From positions 1 to 5,205 of the IMG/VR virus record IMGVR_UViG_3300045988_166337: a stretch of 5,205 bases of DNA; one strand, 5' to 3'. This DNA is from a virus. Shown here one piece after another: positions 1,595 through 5,205 of this stretch (its first letter is position 1; the number at the start of each line of letters is the position of its first letter). A program made the translations under genes and the position numbers. The notes beneath the pieces were generated by a model that did no database searches, had not been told where the DNA came from, and worked only from the letters and a program-made list of their open reading frames with translations.

Positions 1595-2149
1595 TTAGCC
1601 TATATGAGTTGCGCAATGATGGCGCAACTCTCGTCGCTCGTCGCTCCGTACGCTTTGGAAAAGCTGCGAAAGCAAAATTTTGTCAGAAGCACCGCTAAAG
1701 CGATGCTTAAGGTTAAGACTTGGAGGACAGCCAAGGGAAAGCGCATCACGAGAGAAACTGAAGAACATTGGCGTACATCGGTGGTGTAGGTTGTCTGTTT
1801 GGCTGTAAGATGAACTGGCGTAGGCGTTAGCACGCAGCGTTATTTTTCCGTTGTCCGTACGGTTGTTCGGACAACTTCGGAAAAATAGTCGAGTGCAAGA
1901 CGTTTTCCTAGGATTGAAATTTAGTCCGATAGTGTCCTGCTTGTTAGTAACGTTTACGGTGGTTGGGTTGTTGGTTGTGATTGTGACGGTTGCGGAAGTG
2001 TTTTCAGAGGAGGCACGAACAACAGCTTTAGTGTTCGCACAAGATGAAAGAGACCAAGCACCAGCAAAGGCAAGTGCAAGAAGCACGAAAAGGCGAAGCC
2101 ATAACGGCAAGGCTTTCAGCCACGAGAGAATTTTTTCTAGAGTTTGCAT
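1595..2149 (-). CDS. Putative secreted lipoprotein, 184 aa. The N-terminus MQTLEKILSWLKALPLWLRLFVLLALAFAGAWSLSSC- is a signal peptide ending in a lipobox (L-S-S-C). It is followed by a Thr/Asn-rich linker (TSATVTITTNNPTTVNVTNKQDT) and a Cys/Arg/His-rich C-terminal part.
   Basis: ATG at 2149..2147, 17 nt after the Rep stop and on the same strand. The n-region, h-region and LSSC lipobox are clear. The 3' half (about 1595-1900) coincides with GC-rich hairpins and repeats and has an odd amino-acid composition, so the true C-terminus is uncertain. Confidence 0.4.
   Translation of the reverse strand: MQTLEKILSWLKALPLWLRLFVLLALAFAGAWSLSSCANTKAVVRASSENTSATVTITTNNPTTVNVTNKQDTIGLNFNPRKTSCTRLFFRSCPNNRTDNGKITLRANAYASSSYSQTDNLHHRCTPMFFSFSRDALSLGCPPSLNLKHRFSGASDKILLSQLFQSVRSDERRELRHHCATHIG
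1607..1650. other. Perfect hairpin AGTTGCGC-AATGATG-GCGCAACT (8-bp stem, 1607-1629). It carries a third copy of TTGCGC and its inverse, and is followed immediately by the tandem heptamer CTCGTCG CTCGTCG CTCCGTA (1630-1650).
   Basis: Inverted and direct repeats verified base by base. The element lies inside the 3' end of the putative lipoprotein ORF. Confidence 0.55.
1843..1885. other. Compound inverted repeat TTTTTCCG-TTGTCCG-TACGGTTGTT-CGGACAA-CTT-CGGAAAAA. The outer stem is 8 bp and the inner stem 7 bp, and it contains the palindrome CCGTACGG.
   Basis: Outer arms are 1843-1850/1878-1885 and inner arms 1851-1857/1868-1874. This is a candidate ssDNA secondary structure (sso-like) and it overlaps ORF184 codons. 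Confidence 0.5.
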
Positions 2150-2156
2150 ATAAATA

Positions 2157-2474
2157 TTAGAAATGATTAAAATTTGCTTTTTCTGAATGCTGCAAGATTA
2201 GTTTCGATGATAGTTTGCGCTCTTTGCGCTCGTTCACGCTTTTCGCTATCGCATACAATTTTGGACACGATAGCATACGTTTCATAACTTTCTGGAAGAT
2301 GTTCGTTGGCTGCCAATTGACGACATTTTCCAATAAAGTCTTGTTGAATGCGTTCTTGTAGAGCTCTCGACACCATCGTTGATAACGCAGTCGGGCGATA
2401 ACGCCCTGTAAGCGCATCTTTAACATAGAGTAATCGCATACGATAGTAGCGTGGGAGTTTGTATTGTTTTCCAT
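2157..2474 (-). CDS. Possible overlapping ORF (105 aa, strongly basic) in an alternative frame within the Rep 3' end. It ends 8 nt before the lipoprotein ORF start. This is speculative.
   Basis: True ATG at 2474..2472 and TAA at 2159..2157. About 19 K/R against 7 D/E. Microviruses do carry overlapping genes, but a random frame could give the same result. Confidence 0.15.
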   Translation of the reverse strand: MENNTNSHATIVCDYSMLKMRLQGVIARLRYQRWCRELYKNAFNKTLLENVVNWQPTNIFQKVMKRMLSCPKLYAIAKSVNERKERKLSSKLILQHSEKANFNHF

Positions 2475-3495
2475 TACATTTGTATTTTAATGATGTTGAC
2501 AATCTTTCAACTTGTTTACTTAACCAAAAAGGGTTTACGCCTGTAAACTGGTCGAAACTGGGCAAGTCCGACAAGTCGCCTAAAACGTCCTTACGAAGCT
2601 GCTTATCTCGTTTACGTGTGGGTACACCGAAGCCGATAGATGTAACCTTACGAGGCTTGGCAACCAATCCTTTGACTACAGCTGAATCTTCCAAACATTT
2701 CTGTTTGGTAATGTACTTGGATACATAACGAGCTGTGCGCTCTACATCGCAGGAAGCGATTTTTTTGAAGCAGGTGTAACCGTAATGAGTTTCCCAGTCT
2801 TTTTTGAATCTCATCACATCTTCATCAGATAATCCAACGAGAAGACCGTGGTAATGTGGTCTATGGGTACGAGGTCCATATTCTCCACAAATGAGGTAGC
2901 CGAAATCAACCTTACGGCCAGCGTGGTAGTCAATTTGCCTACGTACGCGCTTTTTCCATAGCTGAATATCTCTGTTATTGAGCGAATAGAGATTACACGG
3001 CCGTTCTCCGGTTTCCTCATCATATATATCACTATCAGAGATAGAATTTTCTGATTCTATATCCAAAGCAGCATAGTCTAGACCATGCCATTTATTTTCT
3101 TTCAAGGATGGAACATCGTAGTAAGAATCGAAGGGCATATCATTCGAATAATCGTCAACCTCGTCAGTCTGGAGGTAGAAATCAGAATTCTCTTCGAGCG
3201 GCTCACAATGTGGAGCGAAAGAAGCAGGACGATATCTTGACGGGTTTTTAAGTATAGGCACAAGATCACGCTCTATAACCTCTCCGTCAGCATCGAAAGC
3301 AACAGGAACGTGATCGTTTGCGTATGTGAGAGTGATAAACCAGAGCGAACCTCTTTTGGCTTGCTCCTCAATAGTACGGATAACAAAGGCGTTCTGATTG
3401 TCTTTAACACATTCAGGACATTTGCCGCAAGGTACATGAACGATTGTCTTTCGTCCACAGACCTCACGGGTTAATTGTACTGGGAAAACACACAT
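2167..3495 (-). CDS. Microviridae VP4 replication initiation protein (HUH rolling-circle endonuclease, A-protein family), 442 aa.
   Basis: ATG 3495..3493 and TAA 2169..2167. The N-terminal Cys cluster VPCGKCPEC is typical of gokushovirus VP4. RCR motif 1 is FITLTY (aa 53-58), motif 2 is PHYHGLL (HYH at 2848-2856) and motif 3 is ARYVSKYITK (Tyr257 at 2725-2727, Tyr261 at 2713-2715), with the same YxxxY spacing as phiX174 protein A. Confidence 0.93.
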   Translation of the reverse strand: MCVFPVQLTREVCGRKTIVHVPCGKCPECVKDNQNAFVIRTIEEQAKRGSLWFITLTYANDHVPVAFDADGEVIERDLVPILKNPSRYRPASFAPHCEPLEENSDFYLQTDEVDDYSNDMPFDSYYDVPSLKENKWHGLDYAALDIESENSISDSDIYDEETGERPCNLYSLNNRDIQLWKKRVRRQIDYHAGRKVDFGYLICGEYGPRTHRPHYHGLLVGLSDEDVMRFKKDWETHYGYTCFKKIASCDVERTARYVSKYITKQKCLEDSAVVKGLVAKPRKVTSIGFGVPTRKRDKQLRKDVLGDLSDLPSFDQFTGVNPFWLSKQVERLSTSLKYKCNGKQYKLPRYYRMRLLYVKDALTGRYRPTALSTMVSRALQERIQQDFIGKCRQLAANEHLPESYETYAIVSKIVCDSEKRERAQRAQTIIETNLAAFRKSKF

Positions 3496-3567: not shown

Positions 3568-4548
3568 TTATTTTCCTACACCTTTGGCAAGTTGACCAAT
3601 AACACCTTGGTTTACACCTCCAAAAAGTTTTGACAAGATAGTAGCGGCTTGGATAAAGTCCTTTGCTAACTTTCCAGAAGTCTTTGAAGTGTCGAAAATA
3701 TTTCCGCTACGTATAAGATATTCGTATTCATCGGCAGTCTTACGAACTTCCTTTTCGTCAGCACTGGCGTTCTGTTCTCTGACCATAGCGGTGATATAGC
3801 CACTATCGATAAGTCCTTGCTCATAAGCGGCATGGACGAACTGGGCAGCGGCAGAAGCTTTTGCAGCTTCAGTCTGGGCAGACATCAAAGATCGCTGAAA
3901 CGGCAAAAGAGTAACGAGATTCTTAATCTCCTGATCGGTCTTACGCTCAATAGCTTTGCGCAATGAAGTTTCAGCAGCAGTAAGTAATCGACGCTCTTCC
4001 TCAGTAGCGGCTTGTTTTTTGAGTAGTTCAACCTCTTCACCAATCTTGGATATATTAGCTTTAATCTGCGAAATCTGGACATCACTGAGCTGTAGGCTAA
4101 GCTTCAGACCTTTCATGAGCAAATCATTATAGTCGTCACGTACTTTAGCATCTTTTTCCTTCAAGTCTGCATCTGCATTCTTGAGGCGTATATCAGCGTC
4201 AGCCAACTTATTTTGGATAGATAACTGCCTGGACTGCATAGCGAGCTGGGCAACCTGCGACAAGTCAAGCAAAGGAGTATTTACGTTGGCACCTTGAGCC
4301 TGGGCACTTGAAGTACCCTGTGTTGAAACTCCACCAGACATAGCCAAGGCAGGATTAACGCCTGCGGCTTGCATATCTGCAACAGTTCTTTGATATTTTG
4401 TACTATCAATTTGCTGGTTAAACTCACGCGAGCGTTGCGCTTCATACTTATTGAAAATATTTTGCTCTCTGCGAACCTTATCAGTATAGTTGCGGTTACT
4501 CATATTAGCGTATTGCTGAAGTAACGCTGTAAGGAATGCAAGTCCCAT
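3568..4548 (-). CDS. Microviridae VP2 minor capsid / DNA pilot protein (H-protein analogue), 326 aa.
   Basis: ATG at 4548..4546 (MGLAFLTALLQQYANMSNRNYTDK...) and TAA at 3570..3568. It contains the conserved ...ADMQAAGVNPALAM motif (GVNP at 4351-4362) followed by long Q/A/K/E-rich coiled-coil-like sequence, which is typical of gokushovirus VP2. The track's upstream extension begins at a TTG inside the ori-like hairpin, and I reject it. Confidence 0.82.
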   Translation of the reverse strand: MGLAFLTALLQQYANMSNRNYTDKVRREQNIFNKYEAQRSREFNQQIDSTKYQRTVADMQAAGVNPALAMSGGVSTQGTSSAQAQGANVNTPLLDLSQVAQLAMQSRQLSIQNKLADADIRLKNADADLKEKDAKVRDDYNDLLMKGLKLSLQLSDVQISQIKANISKIGEEVELLKKQAATEEERRLLTAAETSLRKAIERKTDQEIKNLVTLLPFQRSLMSAQTEAAKASAAAQFVHAAYEQGLIDSGYITAMVREQNASADEKEVRKTADEYEYLIRSGNIFDTSKTSGKLAKDFIQAATILSKLFGGVNQGVIGQLAKGVGK

Positions 4549-4575
4549 ATCTTTTATTTTTTTAATTGAACCTGA

Positions 4576-4596
4576 ACACACGGGGGGGGCGTGTGT
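4576..4596 (-). other. Hairpin ACACACG-(G)7-CGTGTGT (coding strand: ACACACG-C7-CGTGTGT), with a G8 homopolymer on the plus strand at 4582-4589. It lies 2 nt from the ori-like hairpin and 27 nt upstream of the VP2 ATG.
   Basis: Perfect 7-bp inverted repeat 4576-4582/4590-4596 enclosing a G homopolymer, in a genome that is otherwise AT-leaning. Confidence 0.55.
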
Positions 4597-4598
4597 CA

Positions 4599-4631
4599 CC
4601 TCGCATATTAATATCAAGTAAAGGTGCGAGG
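4599..4631 (-). promoter_or_regulatory. Candidate rolling-circle (viral-strand) origin. The hairpin stem is CCTCGCA/TGCGAGG (7 bp). On the coding strand its 19-nt loop reads CCTTTACTTGATATTAATA, which contains ACTTG^ATATTAATA, identical over 14 nt to the phiX174 gene-A nick-site core.
   Basis: Seen directly: plus 4606-4619 'tattaatatcaagt' is the reverse complement of ACTTGATATTAATA. The inverted repeat is 4599-4605/4625-4631. It is intergenic, immediately after the ORF85 stop. phiX174 ori is recalled as CAACTTG^ATATTAATAACACTATAGACCAC. Confidence 0.5.
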
Positions 4632-4632
4632 C

Positions 4633-4890
4633 TTACTCCTGCTTAACAGGAGCGGGGTCTTTTATTGTACCTTTGTCCTTGATATAGTCTCCCATACGGT
4701 ACGCATCAAACACGTCTGAAGGCTTGCCGAGTATCTCGGCAGGGTCTTCTATGCCATTATATTGGTCTTCAGAATCTGCAATTGAAGCAGGAACTTCGCC
4801 GTTAGCAAGACATTCGTTGAGGTCTACAAATCCGAATTGGTCAACCTCTTGTATATCCCTATCTGGATTAAATTTACATTCGCAAAACAT
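4633..4890 (-). CDS. Hypothetical small acidic protein of 85 aa (MFCECKFNPDRDIQEVDQFGFVDLNECLANGEVPASIADSEDQYNGIEDPAEILGKPSDVFDAYRMGDYIKDKGTIKDPAPVKQE). It sits between VP1 and VP2 and its function is unknown.
   Basis: ATG at 4890..4888 and TAA at 4635..4633, on the same strand as all other genes, in the gap between VP1 and VP2. The track's longer 102-aa version starts at a TTG (4941) that lies inside the terminator hairpin, so I prefer the ATG. I recognise no family motif. Confidence 0.45.
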   Translation of the reverse strand: MFCECKFNPDRDIQEVDQFGFVDLNECLANGEVPASIADSEDQYNGIEDPAEILGKPSDVFDAYRMGDYIKDKGTIKDPAPVKQE

Positions 4891-4907: not shown

Positions 4908-4932
4908 GGGGAGAGGTGCTGGAACTCTCCCC
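4908..4932 (-). terminator. Candidate intrinsic terminator or attenuator just downstream of VP1. Stem GGGGAGAG/CTCTCCCC (8 bp) with a 9-nt loop. On the coding strand it is followed by the T-rich stretch TTTATAAAATTATTGTC.
   Basis: Perfect 8-bp GC-rich inverted repeat 4908-4915/4925-4932, 21 nt after the VP1 stop. The U-rich tract follows it on the transcribed (minus) strand. Microviruses are known to use leaky terminators after the capsid gene. Confidence 0.4.
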
Positions 4933-4952: not shown

Positions 4953-5205
4953 CTATGAAAGCTGCTTACCAGCACGGTCAAGCAAGACGTCATCGCCATG
5001 CTCATAAGCAGGATCCTGAAGTGAAGGAATACAAAAACGGGCAAGCGGCATGGAGACCTTATAGTCGAAGAAAGTATCTGACCAATAACCATAACTACTA
5101 ATATCGCCAGCAATGGCGGAAACTTGATCAAGGTAATCTGTAGGAATCTGCAAAAAATCCGAATTTATCTGGGGAACAGCAGCAGGAGTAGTACCTGTAG
5201 CACCA
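4953..5205 (-). CDS. C-terminal segment of the same VP1 gene, 5'-partial in the window. 5087-5205 duplicates 1-119, and the stop codon TAA is at 4955..4953.
   Basis: The frame is continuous with 1..1516(-) once the 5086-nt unit is closed. Translation ...GTTGTAAPVPQINSDFLQIPTDYLDQVSAIAGDISSYGYWSDTFFDYKVSMPLARFCIPSLQDPAYEHGDDVLLDRAGKQLS*. Confidence 0.9.
   Translation of the reverse strand, partial: GATGTTPAAVPQINSDFLQIPTDYLDQVSAIAGDISSYGYWSDTFFDYKVSMPLARFCIPSLQDPAYEHGDDVLLDRAGKQLS

Follow-up and report, generated by a model that had tools for sequence, protein, structure and literature searches.

Thousands of microvirus genomes have been deposited, and to our knowledge a replication origin has been defined for the phiX174-like phages only. 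Work in the 1980s showed the 3' part of the 30-bp phiX174 origin to be a binding or "key" region. In phiX174 and the Bullavirinae this element, CAACTTG^ATATTAATAACACTATAGACCAC, is nicked by the gene A protein (gpA); the reference genome NC_001422 carries it as CCCCCAACTTGATATTAATAACACTATAGACCAC and places rep_origin at nt 4306, on the A immediately 3' of the nicked G. The heptamer CTTGATA is likewise the documented nick site of the pC194-type origins served by Rep_1 initiators (PMC10378824), an origin sequence of this type being given in PMC7072734. Among other small microviruses, conserved intergenic hairpins with compensatory substitutions have been described in the roodoodoo- and reekeekeeviruses, where they are discussed as possible complementary-strand origins; the passages that deal with these hairpins mention neither a nick motif nor a link to the phiX174 origin (PMC9865509). 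Here we describe an intergenic module of a 5.09-kb microvirus in which a conserved hairpin carries the phiX174 nick sequence in its loop, and which we interpret, with a probability of roughly 80%, as the Rep nick site and viral-strand (plus-strand) rolling-circle origin of this phage. This comparative interpretation draws on sequence identity to the phiX174 nick site, on the conserved and co-varying hairpin, on where and on which strand it lies, and on the catalytic motifs of the encoded Rep.

The window, that is, the whole 5,205-nt stretch of viral DNA that was analysed, begins and ends with an exact 119-bp direct repeat (1-119 and 5087-5205), and these identical ends identify it as a circular genome of 5086 nt with terminal redundancy. 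All its genes lie on the minus strand; going by what is known of the family, we take this coding strand to be the packaged strand in the present phage. They comprise the major capsid protein VP1, which spans the circle junction (Phage_F, 4.4e-48), an 85-aa ORF (ORF85, 4633-4890, with its stop codon at 4633-4635), the pilot protein VP2 (3568-4548, with its ATG at 4548-4546 and matches to pilot-protein families) and the replication initiator VP4 (2167-3495; PF23343, 2e-14; phrog_942, 2e-32). The closest GenBank record is a pig-gut "Microvirus sp." with 83.5% nucleotide identity. VP1 is less than 60% identical to all except 4 of the 3390 matching records, with values of about 21-32% in the rows sampled, which places the phage in a poorly sampled, unclassified microvirus lineage rather than in the classical Gokushovirinae. 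The sequence-only reading that preceded this analysis had spoken of gokushovirus-like phages.

Two further features of the genome deserve mention in their own right. Between VP4 and VP1 lies an ORF of 184 aa (1595-2149, minus strand) that has no match in Pfam or PHROG, and whose N-terminus resembles a lipoprotein signal peptide with a lipobox (…AWSLSSC). Its counterparts at the same position in relatives are only 84-94 aa long; its product could act in lysis or in the membrane, unless the ORF is simply over-extended. Directly past the VP1 stop codon the minus strand has a perfect 8-bp hairpin, GGGGAGAG-N9-CTCTCCCC, followed by TTTATAAAA (4908-4932), which occurs in MT135427 too and may terminate transcription or act in regulation between VP1 and ORF85.

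The predicted origin module is housed in the 84-nt non-coding gap between ORF85 and VP2 (4549-4632, minus strand). At 4606-4619 on the minus strand this gap contains the 14-mer ACTTGATATTAATA, which corresponds to the core of the phiX174 origin. The phiX174 sequence given with the initial observation is correct, and comparison with NC_001422 confirms an exact identity at 14 of 14 positions. The 14-mer is the sole match in the window even when up to two mismatches are allowed, shuffled sequences yielding 0.05 such matches. The chance expectation of an exact match on both strands of the 5086-nt genome is 3.8e-5 with uniform base frequencies, in line with the initial estimate of about 4e-5, and 1.2e-4 with the base composition of the window. 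The motif sits on the coding strand, in the 19-nt loop CCTTTACTTGATATTAATA of a hairpin with the stem CCTCGCA/TGCGAGG (4599-4631, minus strand), exactly as first described. Its 7-nt arms (4599-4605 and 4625-4631) are 100% complementary, and five of the seven pairs are G-C. By identity with the G4305^A4306 of phiX174, the Rep nick is predicted between G4615 and A4614 on the minus strand, a position proposed at the outset that agrees with the rep_origin annotation of phiX174.

Further elements flank the nick hairpin on the same strand. On its 5' side a first hairpin, CTCCTG-TTAAG-CAGGAG (4636-4652), overlaps the final codons of ORF85. On its 3' side follows a TGACAC box (4593-4598), the G of which stands 17 nt 3' of the predicted nick, and a third hairpin, ACACACG-C7-CGTGTGT (4576-4596), whose 5' arm overlaps this box. 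When the minus strand from 4560 to 4660 is folded as single-stranded DNA, the three consecutive hairpins are obtained with an energy of -18.5 kcal/mol (z = -5.4; none of 200 shuffles equals it). The loop of the third hairpin corresponds to a run of eight C on the coding strand (4582-4589), a homopolymer prone to slippage and length errors; the relatives have unrelated short loops at this point.

Relatives with as little as 30% Rep identity retain the motif and the hairpin and show compensatory changes in the stem, which answers the conservation check suggested together with the initial observation. Two relatives from GenBank and three from IMG/VR have the 14-mer unchanged within the loop, and in them the stem shifts from CCTCGCA/TGCGAGG to CTTCGCT/AGCGAAG in a compensatory manner. 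The 5' part of the loop differs by 1-3 nt in length among the close relatives, which indicates that the gap is non-coding. Twelve further genomes were chosen by VP4 similarity only (30-72% identity), so as to avoid selecting on the motif. Gene order is identical in all twelve, and each of the 11 with a readable gap has the same module in the equivalent gap and on the coding strand; in the twelfth (L212) the contig end cuts inside the motif, and it was not counted among the readable gaps. The layout in the relatives comprises a first hairpin, usually with the consensus loop TTGAG, then a second hairpin with ACTTGAT at the end of its loop, before an A+T-rich run, then TGACA(C), which is usually the 5' arm of a third hairpin. 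The first hairpin is non-coding in some of them, for example in L208, and a TGACA...TGTCA palindrome is present in most, though not all. Thus, beyond what was first noticed, the module includes a TGACAC box at a phiX-like spacing 3' of the nick and a second conserved hairpin 5' of the nick hairpin.

The conserved positions are distributed unevenly. ACTTGAT (4613-4619) is invariant across 18 genomes, and the rest of the 14-mer varies: the ATTAATA half persists, apart from single substitutions in two genomes (L127 and L216), as far as relatives with about 50% VP4 identity, and beyond this point ATTATATAT or ATTTATAT stands in its place, A+T-rich again and different in sequence. The spacer between the nick and GACA measures 17 nt in 15 of the 18 genomes and 18 nt in the other three. 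The stem, on the other hand, has 14 distinct sequences among the 18 genomes, each of them attained by at most 0.7% of shuffles of the genome's own upstream sequence. In an alignment of 16 sequences 91.8% of the cells pair, compared with 68% in column shuffles, and the covariation score is 0.724, compared with 0.276 in shuffles; neither value was attained in 500 shuffles, and controls with slid partners gave 45-56% pairing. Two-sided changes affect six of the seven pairs of the nick hairpin (93.8% of cells paired) and all six pairs of the first hairpin (89.6% of cells paired).

These observations also bear on the possibility that the 14-mer matches phiX174 by chance, or entered the sequence by chimeric assembly with reads of spiked-in phiX174. 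The latter is a common sequencing control, and a scan of IMG/VR with the bare 14-mer gave at least 120 matches, of which nearly all among the matches listed are chance occurrences in large unrelated contigs of this big database; the informative ones among those listed are two phiX-like contigs (L107 and L115) and a distant microvirus (L020). Yet only about 1e-4 matches are expected in a genome of the present size, the identity to phiX174 is confined to 14 nt with unlike flanks, and the element recurs with co-varying stems in many independent assemblies from different studies. A fortuitous or artefactual match is therefore hardly credible.

The covariation in itself fits a DNA hairpin and an RNA hairpin in the transcript alike. 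The hairpins might act in the transcript, by terminating or attenuating transcription or by controlling mRNA stability or translation between ORF85 and VP2, the likeness of the loop to phiX174 being incidental. This would be in keeping with three stable hairpins lying between two genes in a region that is probably transcribed, and covariation would support RNA helices equally well. However, no site resembling a terminator, with a G+C stem and a T-run, was called between 4300 and 5000 on the coding strand; the three terminator-like calls in this interval are all on the non-coding plus strand, and the coding-strand tails, including the one after the third hairpin, are A-rich and not T-rich. No Rfam family matches the window. 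An RNA element would moreover leave unexplained why the invariant ACTTGAT loop is a known DNA nick site, and why TGACAC keeps a fixed 17-nt spacing across lineages with Reps of 25-30% identity. We accordingly regard this explanation as highly improbable and return to the module as a DNA origin.

The initiator encoded by the phage has the catalytic residues that such an origin calls for. VP4 shows an HUH motif, H214-Y-H216, and two tyrosines, Y257 and Y261, in the sequence YVSKY; the corresponding motifs of phiX174 gpA are H263-F-H265 and Y343-VAK-Y347. Across 47 homologues the HUH and tyrosine residues of VP4 change little or not at all, and we presume VP4 to be the rolling-circle initiator and the nicking enzyme. 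Four N-terminal cysteines (C2, C23, C26 and C29; …VPCGKCPEC…; residues 2-29, 3409-3492 on the minus strand) show the same full or near invariance in these 47 proteins. This cluster is probably a zinc-binding module and a candidate recogniser of the TGACAC box, and may form the DNA-binding part of the protein. The predicted origin is on the same strand as all the genes, about 1.1 kb from VP4.

From these features we predict how the module might work, including the binding of VP4, the position of cleavage and the roles of the flanking hairpins. VP4 would bind the 3' arm of the stem and the TGACAC box on the supercoiled double-stranded replicative form, and the inverted repeat together with the A+T-rich stretch would expose ACTTG^AT as a single-stranded loop. 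Cleavage of the minus (viral) strand between G4615 and A4614, by either Y257 or Y261, would leave that tyrosine joined to the 5' phosphate of the A, and the 3'-OH of the G would be the primer from which host enzymes synthesize the leading strand. Once a round is complete, the restored origin would fold spontaneously into the hairpin on the displaced single strand, where the second tyrosine would cut it, and the strand would be ligated to a circle for packaging. Priming of the complementary strand could possibly be served by one of the flanking hairpins.

The last point leads to another explanation, namely that the hairpin itself is the complementary-strand (minus-strand) origin, recognized by host primase, RNA polymerase or PriA. 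The F-G hairpin of phiX174 and the priming hairpins of G4 and M13 provide models for such a site, which every microvirus needs, and the hairpins of the module are stable as single-stranded DNA. Intergenic hairpins of other small microviruses have tentatively been read in this way, as far as the passages concerning them go (PMC9865509). Against this, a hairpin recognized by the host would not be expected to carry the nick sequence of the initiator across different hosts, and the phiX174 motif concerned is the annotated viral-strand origin. Such a function of the nick hairpin appears improbable to us; the first and third hairpins are better candidates for it, and may supply this role alongside a nick hairpin that initiates the viral strand.

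To assess how far the architecture extends, we sampled 80 microvirus contigs from IMG/VR by means of a VP4 profile, nearly all of them about 25-50% identical over the matched VP4 segments. The pattern CTTGA-N15-17-GACA is present on the Rep-coding strand in 51 of the 80 contigs and on the opposite strand in four, with a mean of 4.2 and a maximum of 9 of the 80 after shuffling, and the spacer is 17 nt in 41 of the 52 occurrences. Across 46 distinct sequences, positions outside the pattern are conserved too: a T precedes GACA in 100%, a C follows it in 89% and a T follows CTTGA in 96%, and two positions of the 3' arm retain a G and a C. In 40 of the 44 distinct distant sequences the nick is spanned by a perfect stem that is at least 7 bp long (median 10), with 37 different 5' arms; in shuffled controls a stem of 6 bp was found in 7.6% and one of 8 bp in 0.4%. 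RNAalifold predicted no structure for a gap-free alignment of 32 distant origins, a consequence of the different registers of their 5' arms, and the stem was for this reason tested in each sequence separately against shuffles. A common variant has the form AGCACTAATA-nnnnCTTG^ATA-TATTAGTGCT-AATTGACACC, and its 45-nt consensus matches 152 GenBank microvirus records. Of these records 40 were listed; in each the matching stretch is either unannotated or falls within a "hypothetical protein" CDS, and none bears an origin annotation. A similar element, CTAGCGTATAACAG-tctaCTTGAT-CTGTTATACGCTAG, is found in the gap between VP3 and ORF8 of Chlamydia phage Chp2.

Simple motif searches gave no obvious equivalent in SpV4, Chp1 or phiMH2K, the last of which has no CTTGAT on its coding strand, and the simple pattern is absent from 29 of the 80 diverse contigs. 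Hence the architecture is either not universal or has diverged beyond the reach of a regular expression. A profile search of genome contigs with the protein alignment returned no confirmed relatives. Nevertheless, judged by the patterns found, the putative architecture of a nick hairpin followed by TGACAC is common to much of the non-phiX Microviridae, and the nick-site sequence has been retained across lineages with Reps and capsid proteins only about 25-30% identical to those of this phage.

One of the relatives is an integrated prophage (L208:9852-16425; GCA_002438965.1, DJSK01000012.1) that lies between host genes on a 93-kb bacterial contig, indicating that the lineage can be temperate. 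An IS110-family transposase gene interrupts it between VP4 and VP1, and the copy is probably no longer active. The occurrence of relatives as prophages might suggest that the module is an attachment or dif-like site for lysogeny, the more so because some gokushoviruses integrate via dif-like motifs in non-coding regions (bioRxiv 10.1101/743518); alternatively it might be purely a packaging signal. However, the junctions of the prophage fall between the end of VP2 and the start of VP4, and the module is internal and intact (L208:15115-15200), so that in this prophage the module cannot be the attachment site. Packaging, for its part, is a function that cannot be told apart from that of an origin. 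We give either of these explanations very little credence and retain that of a replication origin.

The module is not confined to complete phages. A pattern scan of bacterial genomes detected a complete copy in an uncultured member of the Bacteroidales (L222:650-2400; CAKUVR010000060.1), near which there is no VP1, VP2 or VP4. The insert adjoins a glycoside-hydrolase-like gene of the host and has the order 49-aa ORF, 331-aa ORF, 76-aa ORF, module. The 49-aa ORF has weak matches to PHROGs of homing-endonuclease families, and the 331-aa ORF has weak Rep_trans/Phage_CRI matches, below the Pfam cut-off; the family of the latter is small (nine clusters), and a search of IMG/VR for relatives of this ORF found none. 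One member of this family is encoded on a 4800-nt contig (L225/L226) whose 55-nt terminal repeat points to a circular element of about 4745 nt. This element encodes a large serine recombinase, a NUMOD3 ORF, a Rep_trans-like ORF and a 79-aa ORF, followed by the module (about 4440-4530 of L225) with the exact 14-mer, the stem TTTTTAC/GTAAAAA, a 17-nt spacer and GACAC. It has no capsid gene, and pilot and VP4 genes are likewise absent from both elements. With microviruses the capsid-less elements share only about 60-130 bp, at 78-88% identity, and these coincide with the module.

A cassette of this size common to otherwise unrelated elements is what would be expected of a self-contained cis-acting site, and its presence in them fits a cis-acting cassette moving between replicons. 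We define the cassette as the TTGAG-loop hairpin, which is known from this clade, the ACTTG^AT nick hairpin and the TGACAC box or hairpin. Plasmids with the phiX174 origin are packaged via the helper Rep and capsid, and the capsid-less elements may in like manner be satellites, or represent a case of origin piracy. We offer only tentatively the more specific proposal that the module of about 100 bp is a portable cassette captured by capsid-less elements, which would be satellites nicked in trans by the Rep of a helper microvirus and packaged with its aid. These carriers encode an unrelated Rep_trans-like protein, in which a profile comparison with VP4 found no homology, and the module may therefore be used by another protein. 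If the proposal is true, these would be the first satellites described for the Microviridae.

The signature that emerges from these comparisons reads, in order, as stem, N3-6 CTTG^AT loop and 3' arm, with TGACAC at a spacing of 17 nt, and can be put to several uses. With it, metagenomic microvirus genomes could be given a uniform zero point and strand assignment, and elements that hitch-hike on microvirus replication could be traced. VP4 nicking assays could in addition use the module directly as their substrate, and phagemid or ssDNA-production tools for gut Bacteroidales could be built on it. Neither the openly readable full-text literature that was searched nor the matched GenBank records listed contained a description of this origin. 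As far as we found, the module is thus new to the literature searched, and the nick sequence itself is known from phiX174 and from pC194-type origins.

Compared with these and other known systems, the predicted origin shows both likenesses and differences. It has the identical 14-nt core of the phiX174 origin, on the viral (coding) strand in both phages. Of the phiX174 recognition sequence (C)AACTTG^ATA it contains ACTTGATA exactly, the two bases 5' of the core being TT instead of CA, and the A+T-rich spacer 3' of the nick, ATATTAATA, is again identical. In the phiX174 sequence ACTTG^ATATTAATAACACTATA-GACCAC the GAC stands at 17 nt, as it does in the window. The phiX174 "key" ACTATAGACCAC and the TGACAC box nonetheless share only GAC and the spacing, and differ at the other conserved positions of the 3' arm, so that the likeness on this side is suggestive only. 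The initiators gpA and VP4 have in common the HUH motif and the two-tyrosine motif YVxKY, although VP4 is far diverged from gpA. Unlike the phiX174 origin, which lies inside the initiator gene, that predicted for the present phage is intergenic, and the former arrangement is probably a peculiarity of the Bullavirinae and not a functional requirement. The same nick sequence is also presented differently: in phiX174 it is unpaired between two flanking hairpins, whereas here it is enclosed by a co-varying stem. With origins of the pC194/pUB110 type the module shares the nick heptamer CTTG^ATA and rolling-circle initiation by an HUH-type protein; it differs from them in its flanks and its TGACAC box, in belonging to a phage and not a plasmid, and in its initiator, as VP4 matches PF23343 and not Rep_1 (PF01446). 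Finally, the display of a nick site in the loop of a co-varying intergenic hairpin, with an HUH Rep, recalls the origins of CRESS-DNA viruses, from which the module is set apart by its lack of a nonanucleotide of the NANTATTAC type, by a two-tyrosine Rep that has no helicase domain, and by its bacterial hosts.
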